DNA from: a plasmid
Strand: one strand, 5' to 3'
Sequence record: NZ_LR134454.1
Length of the DNA stretch: 64,000 bases
Within the stretch, counting starts at the first letter, position 1; each line of letters opens with the position of its first letter. The position numbers were made by a program, and so were the translations under genes. Shown one piece after another: positions 3,401 through 40,180 of this stretch. The notes below the pieces were generated by a model. That model was not told where the DNA came from, did no database searches, and saw only the letters and a list, made by a program, of their open reading frames with translations.

Positions 3401-4338
3401 GGCCTGCCGGCCATGAACTTCTGCATGTCGGCGAGGACGCGCTCCGCGGCGACGGTGGAGGCGTTGAGGAACCAGGGGTCGACGTCGACCTCGAAGGCGC
3501 GTCCGCGCTCGACGACCGGCAACTTCTTCCACAGCGCCGCCTCCGTCATGTCGCGCGAGGCCTTCGGGAACGAGTAGAACAGCCAGTCGGCGTCGAGCAT
3601 CCCCACCTCCTCCGGCGACAGCGCGCGGCTCGCGACGTCGGAGAAGCGCTGGGCCGCAGGGCGGGTCAGGCCGGCATCCGTGCCGACGATGCTCGCCAGG
3701 GCCAGCGTCCCGAAGTACAGGTACTGATCGCCGCGCGCCCGGACCAGCGAGACGGTCGCGGCGTCGCCGCGCGACTGCGCCCACGCGCGGGCGCGGCCCG
3801 CGTAGTCGGCGAGCAGCTTCTCGCCGGACTGCTTTCGCTTCAGCGCCTCGGCGACGGTCGTCAGGTCGGTCTTGAACGCCTCCGAGCCGCCCGCGGTGAG
3901 CACGGTGGGGGCCATCTTCGCCAGCTGCTCGTTGAGGGACTTGTCGGCCCGCTTGTTCGACAGGATCAGGTCGGGCTTGAGTGCGGCGATCTTCTCCGGG
4001 TCCGGCGTCATCCGCTCGCCGACGATCTGGATCGCGTCGAGGTCGTACTTCGCGCCGAAGGCGTCGCGGATGAACTGGGGGATCCCGGTGCTGTTGCTCG
4101 CCTCCGGGGCGACCACCGCGAGGCCGACCGGCACCGTTCCCAGCGCGAGGCAGTGATCCAGGTGTCCGGTGGAGAGCGCGACCACCCGCTTCGGGCCGTC
4201 GTCGCCCGTCTGCGCGGACGTGCCGTCGGCGCCGCACGCGGACAGCGCGGCCGCGGCGCCCAGGCCGCCCGCGCCGAGGAGCAGCGATCGTCGGCTGAGG
4301 GGGCGGCGCATCGGGGAGCGAGGACTCGGGGAGGTCAT
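3397..4338 (-). CDS. ABC transporter substrate-binding lipoprotein, iron-siderophore (FecB/FepB-like) type, Tat signal
   Basis: N-terminus MRRPLSRRSLLLGAGGLGAAAALSACG has a twin-arginine motif and a lipobox. Periplasmic binding protein class III signature throughout. The 3' end overlaps the convergent upstream gene by 4 nt. Confidence 0.75.
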   Translation of the reverse strand: MTSPSPRSPMRRPLSRRSLLLGAGGLGAAAALSACGADGTSAQTGDDGPKRVVALSTGHLDHCLALGTVPVGLAVVAPEASNSTGIPQFIRDAFGAKYDLDAIQIVGERMTPDPEKIAALKPDLILSNKRADKSLNEQLAKMAPTVLTAGGSEAFKTDLTTVAEALKRKQSGEKLLADYAGRARAWAQSRGDAATVSLVRARGDQYLYFGTLALASIVGTDAGLTRPAAQRFSDVASRALSPEEVGMLDADWLFYSFPKASRDMTEAALWKKLPVVERGRAFEVDVDPWFLNASTVAAERVLADMQKFMAGRP

Positions 4339-4419: not shown

Positions 4420-5535
4420 CTAGGCCTGGGCCTGGCGCAGGTGCGCGCGACGCAGGGCGTCGGCGAAGCTGCCGCTGCCCAGGAGCGCGACGCCACCGAG
4501 GATGGCGATCATCGCGGGGGAGAGCTGCCGCGCCGTCTCCGCCGCGACCGGCGCCACGCGCTGCGCCGACGTGTACGCCGCCGCGAAGACGGTGCTGTTG
4601 CCGTTGCTGCCGGAGCTCTGCTCCGCCGGCGTGCGGTCGGTGTTCGACGGTGCCGGGGCCGCGGGGGCCGGAGCCGCCGGCTTCGGGGCGGCGGGCTTCG
4701 GTGCCGGTGCAGGCGCGGGAGCCGGAAGGACCGGGCCGGCCACGACGACCGGCGGGACGATGACCGGCGCGACGACGGCCGGGGCCACGGGTGCCGCTGC
4801 GCCGACGCCTGCGGCCGGAGCCGAGGGGCGGGCGTCGCTGCTGCTGCTCGTGGAGCCGCTGTCCTTGGTCGAACCCGGCGACTCGGGGAGCGGGTTGCCC
4901 GTGCGCACGCCGCTGCCGCTGGAGATGGGGGCGCCGCCCGAGCCGGTCGAATTGGTGGAACCGGTCGACGAGCTCGACGACGAGCCGGAATCGGAGCCGC
5001 CCGCGCTGGGGATCGTGGGCGAGGTCGCGGTGCCCGTCGAGCCGCCGCTGCTCGAGCCGCCCCCGCCGAAGATGCCGCCGATGATGCCGATCAGGCCGCC
5101 GCCGTGGCCGTGGCCCTTGTCCTTGCCGTTGTCGCCCTCTTCCTTATCGGGCTTGTTGCTGCCCGTCTCGGTCTCGTCACCCGTCGTCGTGCCGCCGCCG
5201 TTCGGCGAGCCGGTGTCGGTGGAGGAGTCGCCCGAGCCACTGCCGCGAGAGGAGCTGCTGCCGGCTCCGACGCCGCTGCCACCGCCGCTCCGGGAGTCGT
5301 TGCCCGTCGCGCGGCCGGCGCTGCCCGTGGTGGACGCATCGTCGTTCGAACCTCTCGACGATGCGGACGAGGAGCCGTCCGTGCTCTGCGAGGTCGAGCT
5401 GCCGGATCCGGAGCCACTGTCGGAATCCGACGAATCGGGGGTCGCCCAGGCGGGCGCGGAGGCGATGGCGCCGAGGGCGAGAGCGGTGATGCCGATGGCC
5501 CGGAGACGTCGGGAGAGATGGGTCGGACGCGACAC
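4420..5535 (-). CDS. secreted low-complexity Ser/Gly/Thr- and Pro/Ala-rich protein with C-terminal hydrophobic anchor (Erp-like architecture)
   Basis: Clean Sec signal (…ASAPAWA|TP). Long DSGSGSGS/STGS tracts, then PAPAPAPAPKPAAPKPAAP, then a C-terminal hydrophobic segment ILGGVALLGSGSF followed by RRAHLRQAQA. The opposite-strand Pro-rich ORFs are mirror frames. Confidence 0.5.
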   Translation of the reverse strand: MSRPTHLSRRLRAIGITALALGAIASAPAWATPDSSDSDSGSGSGSSTSQSTDGSSSASSRGSNDDASTTGSAGRATGNDSRSGGGSGVGAGSSSSRGSGSGDSSTDTGSPNGGGTTTGDETETGSNKPDKEEGDNGKDKGHGHGGGLIGIIGGIFGGGGSSSGGSTGTATSPTIPSAGGSDSGSSSSSSTGSTNSTGSGGAPISSGSGVRTGNPLPESPGSTKDSGSTSSSSDARPSAPAAGVGAAAPVAPAVVAPVIVPPVVVAGPVLPAPAPAPAPKPAAPKPAAPAPAAPAPSNTDRTPAEQSSGSNGNSTVFAAAYTSAQRVAPVAAETARQLSPAMIAILGGVALLGSGSFADALRRAHLRQAQA

Positions 5536-7913: not shown

Positions 7914-7992
7914 CGCGGAGCCATCCGAATGGCTGCGATCCCGCGGCCATTCGGGTGGCCGAGCAGGTCTAGCGCGGAGCCATCCGAATGGC
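7909..7992. repeat. 25-bp perfect direct repeat (tctagcgcggagccatccgaatggc) duplicating the 3' end of the SDR gene, copies at 7909–7933 and 7968–7992
   Basis: Seen directly in the sequence. Copy 1 contains the stop of the + membrane gene. Copy 2 contains the stop of the − SDR gene. Confidence 0.8.
7925..7954. terminator. intergenic hairpin (9-bp stem ccgaatggc/gccattcgg, 12-nt loop) between convergent genes
   Basis: Inverted repeat at 7925–7933 and 7946–7954. There is no U-tract, which is typical for high-GC actinobacteria. Confidence 0.3.
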
Positions 7993-8727
7993 CCCGTCCA
8001 TGCGGATCGTCTCGCCGTTCATGTAGTCGTGCTGCGAGAGGAAGTACGCGAGATCGGCGTACTCGGACGGCTCGCCCAGACGCTGCGGGAACGGGACGCC
8101 CGCCTCGAGGGTCTGCTTGAACTCCGGGGTCACGCCCGCGAGCATCGGGGTGTTGATGATGCCCGGCGCGATGGTGTTCACGCGGATGCCGAACTGCGCC
8201 AGGTCGCGCGCGGCGGTGATGGTCATGGCGTGCACGCCGCCCTTGGAGGCGGTGTAGGCGATCTGGCCGATCTGGCCCTCGAAGGCCGCGACCGAGGCGG
8301 TGTTGACGATGAGGCCGCGGGAGCCCTGCTCGTCGACGGCCTCCTGCTTGCTCATCTGGTCGGCGGCCAGGCGCATCACGTTGAACGTGCCCACGAGGTT
8401 GATGTTGATGACCGTCTGGAACAGGTCCAGCGCGTGCGGGCCGTTCTTCGACAGGATGCGGCCGGCCCAGCCGACGCCGGCGCAGTTGACGGCCACGCGC
8501 AGCGGGCCGGCCTTGACGGCCTCGGCGATCGCGGCGAGGACCTCGTCCTCCTTGGTCACGTCGGTCGCGACGAGGTGCACGTTCTCGACCGGGGTCGCCT
8601 TGTCGATCGACGGCTGCAGGTCGAGGCCGAAGACGGTGGCGCCCGCATCGGCGAAACGCTTCGCGGTGGCGGCGCCGAGGCCGGATGCGCCACCGGTGAC
8701 GATGACGGAGGAGCCGGAGACGTCCAT
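7969..8727 (-). CDS. SDR-family oxidoreductase (3-hydroxyacyl-CoA dehydrogenase type-2-like)
   Basis: TGGASGLG Rossmann motif. YxxxK catalytic motif (YTASK). Confidence 0.85.
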   Translation of the reverse strand: MDVSGSSVIVTGGASGLGAATAKRFADAGATVFGLDLQPSIDKATPVENVHLVATDVTKEDEVLAAIAEAVKAGPLRVAVNCAGVGWAGRILSKNGPHALDLFQTVININLVGTFNVMRLAADQMSKQEAVDEQGSRGLIVNTASVAAFEGQIGQIAYTASKGGVHAMTITAARDLAQFGIRVNTIAPGIINTPMLAGVTPEFKQTLEAGVPFPQRLGEPSEYADLAYFLSQHDYMNGETIRMDGAIRMAPR

Positions 8728-22599: not shown

Positions 22600-24125
22600 C
22601 CGACATCCAGACCCCGCCGGTGGCGTCCGCCACGCGACGGTGGGCGGCGGCCCTCCTGCTCTCGGCGAGCCTGCTCGTCATCACCGTGGACATGACGATC
22701 CTCAACATCGCCGTCCCCGATCTTGCGGCCGACTTGCGACCGACCGCCGCGCAGCAGCTGTGGATCATCGACGTCTACTCGCTGGTGCTCGCGGGCCTGC
22801 TCGTGTCGACGAGTTCGCTCGGGGATCGCTTCGGGCGCAAGCGGATGCTGCTCCTCGGCTACGTCGTGTTCGGCGTCGCGTCGGCCTTGGTGCTGTGGGC
22901 GGAGACGCCCGGCCAGGTGATCGCGCTGCGCGCGGCGCTCGGCGTCGGCGGCGCGATGATCATGCCCACCACGCTGACGATGTTGCGCGTGATCTTCACC
23001 GATCCCGCGGAGCGCGCGAAGGCCCTCGGCCTGTGGGCCGCGGTCTCGGGCGTCGGCGCCGCGGTCGGCCCGATCGTGGGCGGCGTCCTGCTCGAGAACT
23101 TCTCCTGGCGCGCGGCTTTCATGGTCAACGTGCCCATCATGGCCGTCGTGCTGATCATCGGGATCTTCCTGCTCCCCGAGTCGAAGGTCGCGACGACCGG
23201 GGCGTGGGACTGGCTCGGCGCGCTCATGTCGATCACCGGGATGGTGGCGCTGGTCTGGGCCATCAAACGGTTCGCCAAGGATCACACGTTGCTGTCGGGT
23301 CCGGGCCTCCTCGCGCTGCTGCTCGCGGTCGTCGTGCTCGGACTGTTCGTCCGGCGGTCGCTGCGCCGCGCGAACCCGCTGCTCGACGTGCGGCTGTTCG
23401 AGCGCCGGCAGTTCTCCGCGGGCATCCTCGCGGCGCTGGGCGTGATGTTCGCGATGGCCGCGGCCCTGCTGCTGCTCGCGCAGTGGATGCAGCTCGTCGC
23501 GGGCTACGGGCCCATCGAGACCGGCGTGCGGCTGTTGCCCGTCGCCGTGGCCGCGGTCGTCGCGTCGCTGGCCGCGCCGTGGTTGGCGAACGTGCTGGGT
23601 GCCCGGGTGGTGCTCGCGGGCGGCCTGGTCGCGGCGGCGATCGGGATGGTGCTCATCGCCGCCCCTGCGCAGCTGGACTACGTGGGACTGTTGGCGCCGC
23701 TGGTCCTCGTGGGCCTCGGCATGGGCGCGATGACGGTGGCCTCCGCGATGATCATGTCGGGCACGCCGGAGGAGAAGGCGGGCAACGCCGCCGCGCTCGA
23801 GGAGACCAGCTACGACCTGGGCAACGTGCTCGGCGTCGCGATCCTCGGCAGCGTCGCGGCGATGCTCTACACCGCCGACGCCGACTTCGGTTCGATCCCC
23901 GGGGTCGACGCCGCCACGGCGGGCGCGGCCGGGGAGTCACTGGGCGCCGCGATGGCGATCGCCCAGCAGGCAGGCCTGCCCGCCCTCGCCGAGCACGCGA
24001 CCACCGGCTTCACCGCGTCGCTGCAGACCACCGGCCTCGTCGGCGGCGTCATCCTGCTCGCCGTCGCCGTGGGCGTCTACGCGCTCACGCCGAAGGGCAC
24101 CGACATCACGCAGCAGGCGCACTGA
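22596..24125 (+). CDS. MFS transporter, DHA2 (14-TMS EmrB/QacA) drug-efflux family
   Basis: Internal ATG at 22596 overlaps the TetR stop. Motif A-like GDRFGRKRML. 14 TM helices. Confidence 0.85.
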   Translation: MTDIQTPPVASATRRWAAALLLSASLLVITVDMTILNIAVPDLAADLRPTAAQQLWIIDVYSLVLAGLLVSTSSLGDRFGRKRMLLLGYVVFGVASALVLWAETPGQVIALRAALGVGGAMIMPTTLTMLRVIFTDPAERAKALGLWAAVSGVGAAVGPIVGGVLLENFSWRAAFMVNVPIMAVVLIIGIFLLPESKVATTGAWDWLGALMSITGMVALVWAIKRFAKDHTLLSGPGLLALLLAVVVLGLFVRRSLRRANPLLDVRLFERRQFSAGILAALGVMFAMAAALLLLAQWMQLVAGYGPIETGVRLLPVAVAAVVASLAAPWLANVLGARVVLAGGLVAAAIGMVLIAAPAQLDYVGLLAPLVLVGLGMGAMTVASAMIMSGTPEEKAGNAAALEETSYDLGNVLGVAILGSVAAMLYTADADFGSIPGVDAATAGAAGESLGAAMAIAQQAGLPALAEHATTGFTASLQTTGLVGGVILLAVAVGVYALTPKGTDITQQAH

Positions 24126-24169
24126 CCCGGGCGGCTCACGATGTCGGGTTTCGGTGAGGAGGACGTGCG

Positions 24170-25135
24170 TCAGAACACCTCCGTGTCATCAGAACTCGAG
24201 ATCCTGAGCCGACTCGTCCGGGGCGCGCGATGGCGCCGCGTGCGCACGAGGTCCATGATGTCGGCGAACACCGCGTCCCAGCCGAACATCACCTCGGCGT
24301 AGTCGATCCGCAGCACGCGGTAGCCGCTCATCGTCGCGACGCGATCCCGCCGGTTGTCCTCGGTGCGCTGCGCATCGTTGTGGAACTCCCGGCTGTCGCA
24401 CTCGAGGATCAGCTTCTCGCCGACGAGCAGGTCCACGCGGCCGAGCCCCTCGATCACCACCTGACTGCGCACCAGGACGTGGTGGTTCTGGAGCCGGATG
24501 CGGGTCACGGACTCGGTGCCGGAGCCCGCCAGCGGGTCGAGGCGATCGAGCAGGCGCAGCACGCGCTGTGGCGCGCCGTCGAGGATCTCCCGCAGGTCGG
24601 CCTCGGAGTACGGATTCGGCATCCGCAGCGTCGAATCCAGCACCGCCACCAGGTAGTCATCGGACAGGCAGTTGGCCGCGCACTGCAGCGCCACGGGAAG
24701 GGGATCGACCGATCGGGCCGGCGTAGCCAGCCCGTGGTGCGAGTGGCAGCGGGCGGAGCGATCGGTCGAGCCGGGTGTGCTCGGCGTTCCGCCCGCTCGA
24801 CCGCGCGCCCGCCCCGTCCTGGCGCGGCTCGCCGCTGCCGCCGGCGCGCGGTGCACCGGCCAGCGGACGTGGCTGCGGGTGATGCCGGGCGGGACCCAGA
24901 CGCCCGGGGCGAACCGCAGAGCGGAGACGCAGGTCAGCGCGGCACCGCTGCGTACCGCCGCCACGACCGCGGGATCCGCCCCCGTGATCGCGTACCAACC
25001 CCGCCGGATCACCGTGAGGGTGCCGGCGTGGCGCAGGGCGCTGATCTCCCGCGGATCGGCGCCGTGCGCGATCAGCCGTGCCCGGGAGACGACGCCGCCG
25101 TCCGCAAGGGCGGCGATCAGCTCGATGAGGTCCAT
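24170..25135 (-). CDS. DUF559 endonuclease-domain protein with AbiEi_4-like N-terminal domain
   Basis: C-terminus SGTESVTRIRL…VDLLVGEKLILECDSREFHND…YRVLRIDYAEV matches the DUF559 (Vsr-like PD-(D/E)XK) pattern. The N-terminus MDLIELIAALADGGVVSRARL is AbiEi_4-like. Confidence 0.7.
   Translation of the reverse strand: MDLIELIAALADGGVVSRARLIAHGADPREISALRHAGTLTVIRRGWYAITGADPAVVAAVRSGAALTCVSALRFAPGVWVPPGITRSHVRWPVHRAPAAAASRARTGRARGRAGGTPSTPGSTDRSARCHSHHGLATPARSVDPLPVALQCAANCLSDDYLVAVLDSTLRMPNPYSEADLREILDGAPQRVLRLLDRLDPLAGSGTESVTRIRLQNHHVLVRSQVVIEGLGRVDLLVGEKLILECDSREFHNDAQRTEDNRRDRVATMSGYRVLRIDYAEVMFGWDAVFADIMDLVRTRRHRAPRTSRLRISSSDDTEVF
24189..24207. repeat. 19-bp repeat cagaactcgagatcctgag (18/19 identical to 25285–25303), inside the 3' end of the DUF559 gene
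   Basis: Seen in the sequence. The shared 14-mer cagaactcgagatc is exact at both sites. Confidence 0.7.
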
Positions 25136-25237
25136 GCCGCAACGGTGCCCCGCCGCACGGGCGCGGCCGCCCGGCCGAGGGCGGTCATCCCCAATAAGCG
25201 TACGAAACCTTCGTCCGGCCGCCGACTACTTCACAAT

Positions 25238-25303
25238 GTCGAGTTCTGCGAGGGTGCGTGTGCGTGGGAGCACGTCCACCGCTGCAGAACTCGAGATCGT
25301 GAG
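25238..25303. repeat. palindrome gtcgagttctgc–(34 nt)–gcagaactcgag, partly overlapping the second copy of the 19-bp direct repeat (25285–25303)
   Basis: Seen in the sequence (11/12 arm match). Located in the intergenic region between DUF559 gene 1 and the DUF2470 gene. Confidence 0.7.
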
Positions 25304-25307
25304 GAGA

Positions 25308-26042
25308 TCAGCTCGCGCGGAGGCCGTTGAGGAAGGGGCAGCCCAGCAGGATGCGGATGCCGCGCTGCAGGGCGGCCATGTCGTGGGCGGGCTGTGCGAA
25401 GTTCAGCCGCACGTCGACGTCGGAGAGCTCGTGGTGCTCGGCGCGCAGGCGGATGCCGAAGCGGTCGATGCCCAGCAGCCGGATCCGGTGGTTGCGCAGC
25501 TTGCCCGGCAGGCGGCGGGCGAGCTGCCCGACCATCTCCGGGTGGCCGCTCTCGACGTGAGCGAGCCACGCGATCTCATAGCCCGCGAAGGGATCCGGCT
25601 CGGCGGCGGCCAGTTCCTCGCCCGTCACCGACGAGGCGCCCGCGGCGTCGGCGAGGACGGCCGTCTCGATCGGCATGGTCAGCAGCCGGGAGCCGTTGCC
25701 CACGTCGAGCAGTTCCTCGAGCGGGTTGTCCACGGCGACGCGGGCGGCGAGGGCCGCGCCGTCGGCCACCTCGGACAGGCGGCCGGAGAGCCAGACGAGG
25801 GAGCGGGTGCGCTCGCGCAGCGGCAGCGGCGAGATGTCGTTGATCTCGACCATGGCGCGCACGCCCTCGAGCCACGGGACGTCGTCGGGGACGGCCACCA
25901 CGAGCCGGTCGCCCAGTACGTGGTGCAGCGCGACGGTGATCGGCTCGTAGCCGTCCGCCGCGAGGACCGCGGCATGGGGGACGGCCGCGATGGTGCGGAC
26001 GCGCTCGGCCGGTGTCGGCTCGGCGATGGTCGGGGCGCTCAT
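25308..26042 (-). CDS. DUF2470-like conserved hypothetical protein
   Basis: 244 aa. No catalytic motif. The tentative family call rests on the overall pattern only. Confidence 0.5.
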   Translation of the reverse strand: MSAPTIAEPTPAERVRTIAAVPHAAVLAADGYEPITVALHHVLGDRLVVAVPDDVPWLEGVRAMVEINDISPLPLRERTRSLVWLSGRLSEVADGAALAARVAVDNPLEELLDVGNGSRLLTMPIETAVLADAAGASSVTGEELAAAEPDPFAGYEIAWLAHVESGHPEMVGQLARRLPGKLRNHRIRLLGIDRFGIRLRAEHHELSDVDVRLNFAQPAHDMAALQRGIRILLGCPFLNGLRAS

Positions 26043-26526: not shown

Positions 26527-27507
26527 TCAGGACACCTGGTCGACGGGGACGGTCCAGGCCGTCCGGCACACCTCGAGGGTGGGGGAGAGGCGGCCGCGGT
26601 CGAACCAGCTCTGCGCCGTGCCGCGGGCCAGGACGGGCTCGTTCGACGTCGCGGAGATGATCGTCCACGACGCGGACTCGGCGGAGGCCTCGTCCAGGTC
26701 GCGCGCCTGGATGCCGTGGCCCACCAGTTTCGCGAGCGTGCCGCCCGCGAGACACAGGTCCTGGACGTGGCGGCGACGCAGGTGCTCACCGCCCTGAGGG
26801 CTGGTCGGTCCGCCCGCCAGGCGGACGAGGGCATCGACGTCGGCGGCGACGCCGCTGCGGCGCTCCGTGCGCCCCGCCACGTCGAGCGCGAGCCACATCA
26901 GTGCGCCGCCCGCCTGGTTGCCGATGCCCGCGCGGGCCCGGTCGTAGTTCATGAACGTCACGCCGTCGCAGGTGATGATGCTGTCGATGCGCCGGCTCGC
27001 CGTGCACGCCCCGCCGACGGTGCCGTCGGCCGCGGGGACGACGACGTCCACCCGGACGGCGGGCAGGCCCCACATGCCGCCGAGGCACGCGACCGCGGCG
27101 TCGGCGAACGCCTCCATCGCGGCCTGGTCGGTCGACCACGCCGGGAGCGGGCACGCCGCCGGCGCGGTGAGAGTCGTCGTGAACAGGCTGTTCGCGGTGA
27201 TCTGATCGATGCTGGGCGCGGGCGGCGGCGTGGCCGCGCCGGTGATCCCGGGCAGCGGCGCCGCATCGTCCCGGCCGGACTTCGAGACCGCGGCCCAGCC
27301 GACGGCGCCCGCGAGGAGGACGACGGCGACGGCCAGCGTCAGCCAGCCGGCGAGTCCGAGGCGGCGCGGGTTCCGCACGTCGCCGGTGCCGTACAGGCCG
27401 TTCGTGTACGGGCTGCCGGTGGGCAGCCGGTCCGAGCGCCACGGATTCGGGCCCGTCGGTGCCGGTCCGGAACTGATCCGGTCCAGTGGGTTCTCGTCCT
27501 CCGCCAT
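26527..27507 (-). CDS. membrane-anchored secreted hypothetical protein (single N-terminal TM, Cys-containing ectodomain)
   Basis: Internal Met (MAEDENPL) at 27507. TM segment LGLAGWLTLAVAVVLLAGAVGWAAV. Confidence 0.55.
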   Translation of the reverse strand: MAEDENPLDRISSGPAPTGPNPWRSDRLPTGSPYTNGLYGTGDVRNPRRLGLAGWLTLAVAVVLLAGAVGWAAVSKSGRDDAAPLPGITGAATPPPAPSIDQITANSLFTTTLTAPAACPLPAWSTDQAAMEAFADAAVACLGGMWGLPAVRVDVVVPAADGTVGGACTASRRIDSIITCDGVTFMNYDRARAGIGNQAGGALMWLALDVAGRTERRSGVAADVDALVRLAGGPTSPQGGEHLRRRHVQDLCLAGGTLAKLVGHGIQARDLDEASAESASWTIISATSNEPVLARGTAQSWFDRGRLSPTLEVCRTAWTVPVDQVS

Positions 27508-27594
27508 GCGCCCTCCCGCTTCTGCAAGAACGAAATGACTGTACTGAATCACCGGAGGCCCGCCCCGACGCGGTCACCCCGCTAGGCTCGTGGC

Positions 27595-38981: not shown

Positions 38982-39003
38982 CCCGTTCGACGGTGCGCGA
39001 CGC

Positions 39004-39067
39004 ACATCTTTCGAAGCGTTCTGTGACGGAACCCGCTCGGTTCCTCGCAGAACGCTTCGAAAGATGT
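39004..39067. repeat. 64-bp palindromic element, copy A (arms acatctttcgaagcgttctg / cagaacgcttcgaaagatgt, nested ggaacc…ggttcc in loop)
   Basis: Seen in the sequence. The 20-bp arms are perfect. The right arm contains the first in-frame ATG (39064) of the DUF559 ORF. Confidence 0.85.
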
Positions 39068-39954
39068 CGGTGGGGGATCCGATCTCGGCGCTGGTGCGTC
39101 CAATGGGTATGGGGGTCCCCACACGAGAGTTGGTTCCGTACGCGACGCCGTACGAGATCCGTGCTCGATACCAGCAGGTGATCCGCGGTGTGCGCATGCC
39201 CGCGGGTCGGCCGGTGACGTTCCGCGACCTGATCGACGCGGCTCTGCTGCTGTATCCCGACGCCGTGTTCTGCGGGTGGACCGCCGCGGCCCTGCACGGC
39301 GTCGCGTACTGCGCCGACAGGCCGATCGAGGTCTGGTTTCCGCTGCCCCGACGACGGCAGGGGATCGTCATCCGCGGCGGCGCCATGCCCGATGCGGACG
39401 TGATCGTCGTCGACGGCCTCCGGCTCACGACGGGCGCCCGCACGTTCGTCGACATCGCCCGTTTCACCGACGGTGACGATGCCGTCGTCGGCGCGGATCA
39501 GTGCCTGCGGGTGCGCGACGACGGACGGTCCGTCACGACGGTGCAGGACGTCGCCGACTACCTCGACGCCCACGCGCACCTGCACCGGTCGCGTCGAGTG
39601 CGCGCCGTGCTCGCCGAGGCCGACGGAGGAGCCGAATCGCCACCCGAAACGCATCTGCGACTGCTACTCCATCGGGCCGGTCTCACCATGTTCGCCACGC
39701 AGATCGTCATCGACGGTGGCCGCTACCGCCTCGACCTCGGCGCGGACGAGTACAAGGTCGCCGTCGAATACGACGGCCGCGATCACGCCGATCCAGGGCA
39801 ACAGAGTCTGGACGCGACTCGTCGCAACACTCTGCGGCACGACTACGGCTGGGAGGTCATCGTGGTCACCGCGAAGATCCTGTCCGAGGGACGTGACGAG
39901 ATGCTCCGCCAGGTGCGGTCCGCCCTGGATGAGCGTGCACACGCGGCGGCATGA
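39064..39954 (+). CDS. DUF559 endonuclease-domain protein (second copy). Start is uncertain, 39064 or 39103
   Basis: C-terminus GGAESPPETHLRLLLHRAGL…VEYDGRDHAD…WEVIVVTAKIL matches the DUF559 pattern. Flanked by the two 64-bp palindromes. Confidence 0.65.
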   Translation: MSVGDPISALVRPMGMGVPTRELVPYATPYEIRARYQQVIRGVRMPAGRPVTFRDLIDAALLLYPDAVFCGWTAAALHGVAYCADRPIEVWFPLPRRRQGIVIRGGAMPDADVIVVDGLRLTTGARTFVDIARFTDGDDAVVGADQCLRVRDDGRSVTTVQDVADYLDAHAHLHRSRRVRAVLAEADGGAESPPETHLRLLLHRAGLTMFATQIVIDGGRYRLDLGADEYKVAVEYDGRDHADPGQQSLDATRRNTLRHDYGWEVIVVTAKILSEGRDEMLRQVRSALDERAHAAA

Positions 39955-40018
39955 ACATCTTTCGAAGCGTTCTGCGATGAACCGGGCACGATTCGTCGCA
40001 GAACGCTTCGAAAGATGT
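39955..40018. repeat. 64-bp palindromic element, copy B (arms acatctttcgaagcgttctgcga / tcgcagaacgcttcgaaagatgt)
   Basis: Seen in the sequence. The 23-bp arms are perfect. It starts immediately after the DUF559 stop (39952–39954). Confidence 0.85.
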
Positions 40019-40057
40019 GGAGCTGCATGTGCGTGAACCCGCGCCGACCCGGCACCG

Positions 40058-40101
40058 GGTGTGACTGATGTGACAAATGTTGCTTACGTGACGAATGTTG
40101 C
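40058..40101. promoter_or_regulatory. direct repeats of GTCACA on the minus strand (TGTGAC…TGTGAC…CGTGAC) plus AATGTTGC x2 in a low-GC promoter region
   Basis: ggtgtgactgatgtgacaaatgttgcttacgtgacgaatgttgc, about 80–120 nt upstream of the SpoIID/LytB gene. This resembles direct-repeat boxes of OmpR-family response regulators such as MtrA. Confidence 0.3.
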
Positions 40102-40180
40102 AGATGGTGTTAGTCTCGACCTCACGTTGAGCTTTGCCGTTCCCTGGCACGGCTCACCTGCGTCGAGCTAAGGAGAAGCC

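Follow-up and report, generated by a model that had tools for sequence, protein, structure and literature searches.

The 64,000-nt stretch of sequence record NZ_LR134454.1 analyzed here (the window), which is from Tsukamurella tyrosinosolvens or a very close relative, contains, between an MFS transporter gene and a DUF2470 gene, a minus-strand gene for a nuclease-like protein that lies, together with its leader, between two copies of an imperfect palindrome. A second gene of the same family with the same arrangement is found elsewhere in the window, and the two units are referred to below as cassette 1 and cassette 2. The protein encoded by cassette 1 is composed of a winged helix-turn-helix (wHTH) domain at residues 7–51, a disordered and variable linker at residues ∼84–142, and a nuclease domain at residues ∼200–300 bearing the motif ECDSREFHND. 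The only Pfam matches are DUF559 (25.7 bits, cut-off 20.6), AbiEi_4 (25.2 bits, cut-off 25), and MTES_1575, which like DUF559 is a Vsr-type nuclease domain, and no transposase of the DDE, HUH/Y1, serine, or tyrosine type was found. DUF559 and MTES_1575 form a family of Vsr-type restriction endonucleases (PMC3710099). No NCBIfam model is matched, and PADLOC returns weak AbiEi matches and one marginal homing-endonuclease (HEase) match but no defence system. Residues D235, E245, D247, and H252 are invariant or nearly so among relatives, in which the catalytic pattern E-x-D-x4-H-x-D is kept.

The predicted structure of the cassette 1 protein is confident for the C-terminal domain only. The best match to the PDB in a Foldseek search is 3r3p, the catalytic domain of I-Bth0305I (probability 1.0, TM-score 0.60 normalized to the target), followed by 3hrl, the DUF559 protein NGO0050. 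In a sequence profile search 3hrl is recovered with E = 5.9e-5, whereas the match to 3r3p is not significant (E = 0.5). The enzyme I-Bth0305I forms homodimers, and its footprint covers ∼60 bp of a pseudopalindromic target (PMC3239194). The ratio of nonsynonymous to synonymous substitution rates (dN/dS) among strains is 0.44 for the cassette 1 gene, compared with 0.13 and 0.03 for two neighbouring genes, a value indicating relaxed constraint. Hypervariability is marked in the linker that joins the wHTH to the central domain, which in the window protein has pLDDT values below 50 and is predicted to be disordered; in T. spumae (comparison locus L011, 4296–4347) the linker contains three in-frame 15-nt tandem repeats encoding AKAGR units, and in T. 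pseudospumae it is far longer.

An original prediction, made from the letters of the window, had drawn attention to a 19-bp direct repeat bracketing this gene and its leader. The repeat, CAGAACTCGAGATC[C/G]TGAG, is indeed present in two copies that are identical at 18 of 19 positions, with the first copy 1 nt to the right of the proposed 24189–24207 and located, as proposed, within the last ∼13 codons of the gene. A weaker, inverted third copy occupies 25230–25248. The chance expectation is 0.07 matches, none of 100 dinucleotide-preserving shuffles reached three, and within the window the 19-mer is confined to cassette 1, so that it is not an oligomer common there. The upstream copy, as also anticipated, is part of a palindrome, the 33-nt arms of which (25231–25263 and 25270–25302) are 76% complementary; folded as DNA the palindrome has an energy of −20.8 kcal/mol (z = −5.3), and it is conserved in 10 strains. 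The copy at the 3′ end of the gene also lies inside a palindrome remnant, of 74 nt, which forms a 34-nt terminal inverted repeat with 25270–25303 (76% complementary) and can be aligned with the other palindrome copies. This remnant folds no better than shuffled sequences (−8.2 kcal/mol, z = +0.8), having decayed beyond significant folding, and palindromy is better in the orthologous 3′ copies of T. spumae and T. pseudospumae. The two repeats do bracket the gene and its leader, but the unit is larger than the direct repeat, which makes up just one arm of it: an imperfect palindrome of 73–74 nt is duplicated on both sides of the gene, so that terminal inverted repeats and direct repeats are both present at the ends of the cassette. 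The outer edge of the 3′ palindrome is 9 nt from the stop codon of the MFS transporter gene (24123–24125), and that of the upstream palindrome is 4 nt from the stop codon of the DUF2470 gene (25308–25310). In Rfam neither cassette region has a match at the gathering score, the only hits being sub-threshold ones to generic miRNA-precursor hairpins.

Table 1. Features of the two nuclease cassettes in the window.
Feature	Coordinates	Strand	Remarks
Segment absent from T. paurometabola and Tsukamurella sp. 1534	24126..25307		Stop-to-stop comparison of orthologous sites
3′ (gene-distal) terminal palindrome, cassette 1	24135..24208	-	Decayed; shares 13 codons with the 3′ end of the gene
Cassette 1 gene, 321 aa	24170..25135	-	AbiEi_4-type wHTH and Vsr/DUF559 (EDxHD-like) nuclease
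19-mer copy A	24190..24208	+	Gene-proximal (5′) arm of the 3′ palindrome, read on the + strand
Cassette 1 leader, 95 nt	25136..25230	-	Inverted, degenerate box-GCGTACGAAAC-box module (partly judged by eye)
5′ (upstream, gene-proximal) terminal palindrome, cassette 1	25231..25303	-	Inverted-repeat search and DNA folding
19-mer copy B	25285..25303	+	Outer arm of the upstream palindrome
Upstream terminal palindrome, cassette 2	39004..39067	+	64 nt, near-perfect; begins 22 nt past the stop codon of the HAD hydrolase gene
Cassette 2 gene, ∼283 aa	39103..39954	+	Alternative starts 39064 and 39109
Downstream terminal palindrome, cassette 2	39955..40018	+	Starts directly after the gene's stop codon

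Cassette 2 (39004–40018) looks intact and is the better experimental subject. Its palindromes fold with −31.5 kcal/mol (upstream) and −33.0 kcal/mol (downstream), each with z = −12.1, and their arms are identical except for one base, whereas the central 24 nt differ. The encoded protein combines an AbiEi-like N-terminal and central region (PADLOC AbiEi, 1.2e-8) with a DUF559 nuclease domain (4.2e-5), and is 28% identical to the cassette 1 protein over the nuclease domain. Two paralogues of the gene have the same architecture, and its leader (GGATCCGATC..GCTGGTGCGTCCAAT) is shared with a paralogue. The suspected resemblance between the cassette 1 repeat and the palindromes of cassette 2 holds: both contain CTCGCAGAAC...TCGA, and a core GTT(T)CTG / CAG(A)AAC recurs in many palindromes of Tsukamurella, being variant in some. 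Four further copies, two of each protein type and one of them frameshifted, are found in the records of T. tyrosinosolvens NCTC13231, all with paired palindromes, and paired palindromes also accompany the orthologues in eight other Tsukamurella species or strains. The Tsukamurella cassettes occupy five loci, of which locus 3 is not located within the window. Frameshifted genes occur at locus 1 in a T. tyrosinosolvens strain (L010, 4908–5860) and at locus 3 in NCTC13231 (L090, 10001–10866), with the palindromes still recognizable. The NCTC13231 records L090–L093 (NZ_LR134451, LR134464, LR134466, and LR134468), listed in PLSDB as plasmids, carry the hem operon, purB/purC/purD, and gatCA, and are most likely chromosome fragments from a fragmented assembly.

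Comparison of orthologous sites among relatives, which the original prediction had suggested for presence or absence, yields clean empty sites. At locus 1 the cassette is present in T. tyrosinosolvens, T. spumae, and T. pseudospumae and absent from T. paurometabola and Tsukamurella sp. 1534. All 10 strains with an identical DUF2470 neighbour carry the cassette 1 gene, frameshifted in one, and in T. spumae and T. pseudospumae the orthologous cassette has the same paired palindromes. At the empty sites the convergent DUF2470 and MFS genes have stop codons only 5 nt apart in T. paurometabola (stop|GTCGT|stop) and 9 nt apart in sp. 1534 (stop|CCGCGCTGG|stop), with no gene and nothing resembling a palindrome between them, whereas at filled sites the outer palindrome edges lie 4–16 nt from the two stops. 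In BLAST comparisons with the empty locus, window 24126–25314 is the sole missing block. The T. soli intergenic region in this comparison contains a GC-rich hairpin. A target-site duplication outside the palindromes was not found at locus 1, at locus 5, or at 17 well-defined cassettes. Cassette 1 itself (24135–25303) looks like an old, fixed, and partly decayed member of the family and not like a recent insertion.

Locus 5 provides a case of apparent replacement. Between T. pseudospumae and T. spumae the flanks are 98.5% and 94.1% identical and the cassettes only 71.9%, and between strain M9C and T. ocularis the corresponding values are 96% for the flanks and 73% for the cassettes. Two cassette types pair across these groups, cross-cutting the relatedness of the flanks, and two palindrome types exist at this one site. 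The drop in identity comes 14–25 nt ahead of the upstream palindrome, and on the other side high identity resumes at the outer edge of the downstream palindrome or no more than ∼2 nt from it, indicating that the cassette was in all likelihood replaced as a unit. At locus 3, T. strandjordii carries the cassette in the opposite orientation to that in four other species, and the spacers of the two palindrome copies of one cassette are direct in some cases and flipped in others. Cassette and flanks are equally conserved at locus 4.

Locus 2, the intergenic site between the HAD and SpoIID genes equivalent to window 38982–40180, is without a cassette gene in T. pseudospumae (L088) and holds one solitary 60-nt palindrome with arms resembling those of the second (W2) protein type, the expected remnant of recombination between two flanking copies. 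Further solitary copies were found neither in the window nor in the ∼5-kb flanks of 22 cassettes (∼170 kb of flanks). At the same site T. paurometabola has a low-GC ORF of 207 aa (L084, 3868–4491) and T. strandjordii an ORF of 298 aa (L086, 3831–4727); these were considered as DUF559 relatives and rejected, having no similarity to DUF559 and no Pfam match, and the presence of unrelated ORFs there in other species marks locus 2 as a hot spot. Upstream of the adjoining SpoIID/LGFP-domain gene, window 40060–40135 contains two to three copies of the direct repeat GTGAC(A/G)AATGTTGC followed by GTTAGTCTCGACCTCACGTTGAGC. These repeats, which have no Rfam match, also occur at L084 ∼4880–4950, L086 ∼4865–4940, and L088 ∼3990–4060, and are kept in four species whatever fills the adjoining hot spot; the stretch is probably a regulatory region.

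The palindromes differ completely in sequence between lineages, tracking the lineage of the protein, and yet within groups of relatives the arm pairs show compensatory double changes at 4 of 8 predicted pairs in a Tsukamurella set and at 8 of 18 in a Herbiconiux set, some of the latter within the variable centre. Such changes indicate that palindromy is maintained by selection despite the divergence of the sequences themselves.

A profile scan of one genome per species gave 60 loci in Tsukamurella, Gordonia, Williamsia, Mycolicibacterium, Propionibacteriaceae, Microbacteriaceae, Brachybacterium, Janibacter, Kocuria, and others, and a full library search gave 1,158 clusters (50% identity) at E ≤ 1e-10. 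A generic best-hairpin score proved too noisy in high-GC DNA (95th percentile of background 13, known positives 8–11) and was set aside in favour of local alignment of the upstream against the downstream flank, with real-sequence controls. A score of at least 40 was reached at 22 of the 60 loci, compared with 2 of 109 control positions taken from those loci; the former count is a lower bound, because degenerate cases known to be real, such as L024, score at background. The strong cases are mostly palindromes of 60–100 nt, unrelated in sequence between genera, but the geometry is kept: the upstream palindrome usually ends ∼95–130 nt before the ATG, the downstream palindrome starts at the stop codon or overlaps it, and the upstream cassette edge is often 4–15 nt past the stop codon of the preceding gene. 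The family layout is thus a terminal palindrome (60–100 nt), a short leader, a gene for a wHTH (AbiEi-like) protein with a Vsr/EDxHD endonuclease domain, and a second copy of the palindrome. The neighbours are housekeeping genes (MFS, DUF2470, HAD, SpoIID-like, NUDIX, purB/purC, and gatA), and the cassettes are single and dispersed; beside the cassettes examined no integrase or recombinase gene is called and no AbiEii (DUF1814) partner gene is present. At L066 (1468–1847) a tandem duplication of the downstream palindrome, together with ∼300 nt of G-rich sequence, has brought the number of palindrome copies at that cassette to three. The proposal of a family of small repeat-bounded nuclease cassettes has held up under every test named for it, palindrome pairs flanking every DUF559 paralogue examined: at the second locus of the window, at four more T. 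tyrosinosolvens loci, at the orthologues in eight other Tsukamurella species or strains, and at no fewer than 22 of the 60 actinobacterial loci.

The leader has a conserved element of its own. In most relatives the box-GCGTACGAAAC-box module carries DnaA-box-like motifs, and such motifs (TTGTCCACAG) are found in 43 of the 60 leaders and not in the copies of the window, where zero matches to TTNTCCACAG and to TT[GA]TCCACA were obtained in both cassettes; the leader of cassette 2 is short and different from the DnaA-box type. TCCACA is present on the gene strand in 43 of 60 leaders, with 61 occurrences against a background of 0.03 per 200 nt, and the perfect motif TT[G/A]TCCACA occurs 21 times in 19 leaders, compared with 0.06 expected, and never on the opposite strand. 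Often two boxes ∼30 nt apart flank the sequence GTAYGAAAC. The motif corresponds to the high-affinity DnaA box, which is TTGTCCACA in M. tuberculosis and S. coelicolor and TTATCCACA in E. coli (PMC4285127, Table 1). That the leader motif is constant while the palindromes vary suggests recognition by a conserved host factor, and from the motif itself we infer that DnaA may bind the leader boxes. In most leaders of the W1 type (L025–L077) TT[G/A]TCCACAG lies on the gene strand between roughly −170 and −40 nt relative to the start codon, with two boxes, for example, at −85 and −57 in L038 and at −97 and −81 in L044.

Taken as a comparison of sites, these data indicate that palindrome, leader, nuclease gene, and palindrome form a discrete unit that appears to have been gained or lost, exchanged for another, and inverted in one piece. 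Its edges seem to coincide with the outer palindrome arms, and it usually lies only a few nucleotides downstream of the stop codons of adjacent genes. The cassette is probably a selfish nuclease element, belonging to an actinobacterial family, the terminal palindromes of which are the sites of its nuclease. A dimer of the nuclease would bind the two arms of each palindrome, perhaps extruded as a hairpin or cruciform, and would cut there, and with breaks at both ends host recombination or end-joining could excise, exchange, or copy the block. Binding at the upstream palindrome would probably also autoregulate the gene, as AbiEi proteins do, and the DnaA-box-like motifs in the leader suggest that expression may be tied to the replication initiator. 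The resulting life cycle would resemble that of a homing endonuclease gene, with invasion, fixation, decay through frameshifts and eroded palindromes, and finally loss, which would occur by recombination between the two palindromes and leave a solo copy. This scheme is suggested by the fold match to I-Bth0305I with its homodimeric state and ∼60-bp footprint, the conserved E/D/H/D residues, the AbiEi-like N-terminus, and the DnaA boxes of the leaders.

A more far-reaching proposal, which we regard as possible but doubtful, is that the cassettes represent a new class of autonomous DNA element. Its only element-encoded enzyme would be a wHTH–Vsr-like (EDxHD) endonuclease cutting hairpin- or cruciform-forming terminal palindromes, with host repair completing excision, insertion, and allele replacement, and with the DnaA boxes of the leader timing expression to replication initiation. 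End-joining by Ku and LigD is common in Actinomycetota.

Several observations weigh against a mobile, selfish element. The case for mobility is comparative throughout. The Tsukamurella cassettes reside at a few conserved loci common to several species, which implies that movement is rare, and the IMG/VR scan found no relatives. A nuclease alone is incapable of strand transfer and there is no target-site duplication, so that insertion through host repair is a speculative step. Identical palindromes upstream and downstream would also be expected of an operator combined with a terminator or a second operator. Finally, cassette 1 is without a good 3′ palindrome and without DnaA boxes, and the strict repeat score is passed by just 22 of the 60 loci.

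The most serious of the alternatives is that the palindromes are regulatory elements of a resident gene, the upstream copy being an operator for autorepression by the AbiEi-like wHTH and the downstream copy a terminator, insulator, or looping operator; the block would look like a cassette only because small accessory genes come and go, along with their control sites, through horizontal transfer and general recombination. AbiEi models are matched by the N-terminal domains, and AbiEi-family proteins are autoregulators that bind inverted repeats at their own promoters; the palindromes are placed where an operator and a terminator belong, the cassettes are long-term residents of a few conserved Tsukamurella loci, and at locus 4 the cassette is conserved to the same degree as its flanks. 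Regulation by itself does not, however, explain why indel and replacement boundaries fall at the outer palindrome arms, why the 3′ copy matches the lineage-specific sequence of the 5′ copy in very different genera, or why spacers and whole cassettes are flipped and multiple divergent copies occur per genome, and the downstream palindrome at locus 5 ends ∼15 nt before the next start codon, which is odd for a terminator. For these reasons we consider a purely regulatory origin unlikely, yet it can be compatible with a selfish nuclease element; the ends of transposons often serve as operators too.

It is improbable that the palindromes are instead recombined by an enzyme that is encoded by the host or acts in trans, as happens at integron attC sites and Xer dif modules, with the nuclease gene as cargo. 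The layout of conserved inverted arms and a variable centre over 60–100 nt is attC-like, single genes are bracketed in both direct and flipped orientations, and the GTTCTG/CAGAAC core is shared genus-wide by cassettes encoding proteins that are just 28% identical. In all 60-plus loci examined, however, the cargo is one protein family, no other type of gene being found between such palindromes; in addition, palindrome sequence follows the protein lineage, and the cassettes examined adjoin no integrase or recombinase gene. The palindrome arms also appear unlike the attC core (GTTRRRY) and the actinobacterial dif consensus.

Very improbable is an origin from a target site, in which the gene would have inserted at an intergenic palindrome already in place, for example a terminator or REP-like element, and duplicated it in the process. 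The position of the cassettes just after stop codons, where terminators lie, the single palindrome that T. pseudospumae has at its empty locus 2, and the hairpin in T. soli are in line with such a target, but it is contradicted by the two empty locus-1 sites, which have 5–9 nt between stops and no palindrome. Moreover, palindrome type goes with cassette type and not with locus, locus 5 holding two types, and dispersed solitary copies are missing from the window and from the flanks of the 22 cassettes. A chance or codon-driven repeat, for which the very high G+C content of the genome and the dozens of weak repeats listed might speak, has practically no probability given the shuffling statistics, the like design at dozens of independent loci, and the compensatory changes that maintain the palindromes.

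The cassettes share features with several known systems and are identical to none of them. Their catalytic domain places the encoded proteins with the EDxHD/Vsr-like homing endonucleases, such as I-Bth0305I and free-standing members, with which they have in common the nuclease fold of 3r3p, the E/D/H/D pattern, and a multidomain architecture with an N-terminal DNA-binding part. The ∼60-bp pseudopalindromic footprint of I-Bth0305I (PMC3239194) matches the 60–75-bp palindromes of the cassettes, and the presence/absence polymorphism and decayed copies fit the life cycle of homing endonuclease genes. Unlike those genes, the cassettes are intergenic and chromosomal, outside introns, inteins, and phage genes; they interrupt no recognition site, the gene carrying two whole palindromes and the empty site none; and they have an AbiEi-type N-terminal domain and DnaA-box-like leader motifs. 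The catalytic fold family is also that of the Vsr very-short-patch repair endonuclease (PMC3710099), but the cassette protein is twice the size, has extra DNA-binding domains, and is part of a cassette structure with many divergent copies per genome and no adjacent dcm methyltransferase.

REPtrons (RAYT/TnpA-REP) likewise consist of one gene between two lineage-specific imperfect palindromes, with protein and palindrome co-varying. The cassette enzyme is, however, a Vsr-like nuclease and not a Y1 HUH transposase, the palindromes are 2–3 times longer, several divergent cassettes coexist in one genome, and dispersed solitary palindromes, which in the case of REPs number in the hundreds, were not found in the ∼170 kb covered. 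Insertion sequences and miniature inverted-repeat transposable elements resemble the cassettes in being discrete and intergenic with several copies per genome, the cassette being a 1.0–1.2-kb one-gene unit whose outer arms serve as terminal inverted repeats; the cassettes differ from them in lacking a DDE, HUH, serine, or tyrosine transposase and a target-site duplication, in having a full palindrome at each end, and in that copies within a genome are divergent (28–50% protein identity) and not near-identical.

The wHTH, and in cassette 2 also the central region of the protein, match the AbiEi models of AbiE, a type IV toxin-antitoxin and abortive infection system, but there is no neighbouring AbiEii (DUF1814) nucleotidyltransferase gene, and the AbiEi-like part is fused to a nuclease. 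Integron attC cassettes and Xer dif modules are also small, exchangeable, and invertible units with imperfect palindromic sites of conserved arms and variable centre; the present cassettes, in contrast, have no nearby integrase, possess two sites for each single cassette, and always carry cargo of the same family. A description of such palindrome-bounded cassettes was not encountered in the literature, the coverage of which was incomplete, and as selfish or mobile DNA they are apparently undescribed.

Two further features of the region concern other sequences. In one strain (L004, 2546–3505; CP019066) an extra gene of 319 aa is present between genes of 326 aa and 131 aa; it appears to be a strain-specific tandem gain, a paralogue of the secreted or membrane protein family to which the window ORF 26527–27552 belongs. 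Window 7920–7996 contains three consecutive 18-nt arms with a GCCATCCGAATGGC core in alternating orientation, forming two adjacent hairpins, which are unrelated in sequence to the palindromes of the cassettes.

Proteins of the DUF559/AbiEi-fusion family are annotated just as "endonuclease domain-containing" or "AbiEi antitoxin domain," and their location in cassettes gives them a testable biology as selfish or mobile DNA. The palindrome flanking each enzyme is its likely DNA substrate, and the family would thus constitute a natural library of long-site nucleases with matched targets. The cassettes may also represent a route of gene mobility without a transposase, and the leader motifs would connect a selfish nuclease with DnaA, a link that was not expected. 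For genome annotation, palindrome pairs can be used to mark cassette boundaries and local hot spots of variation in Mycobacteriales and other Actinomycetota.

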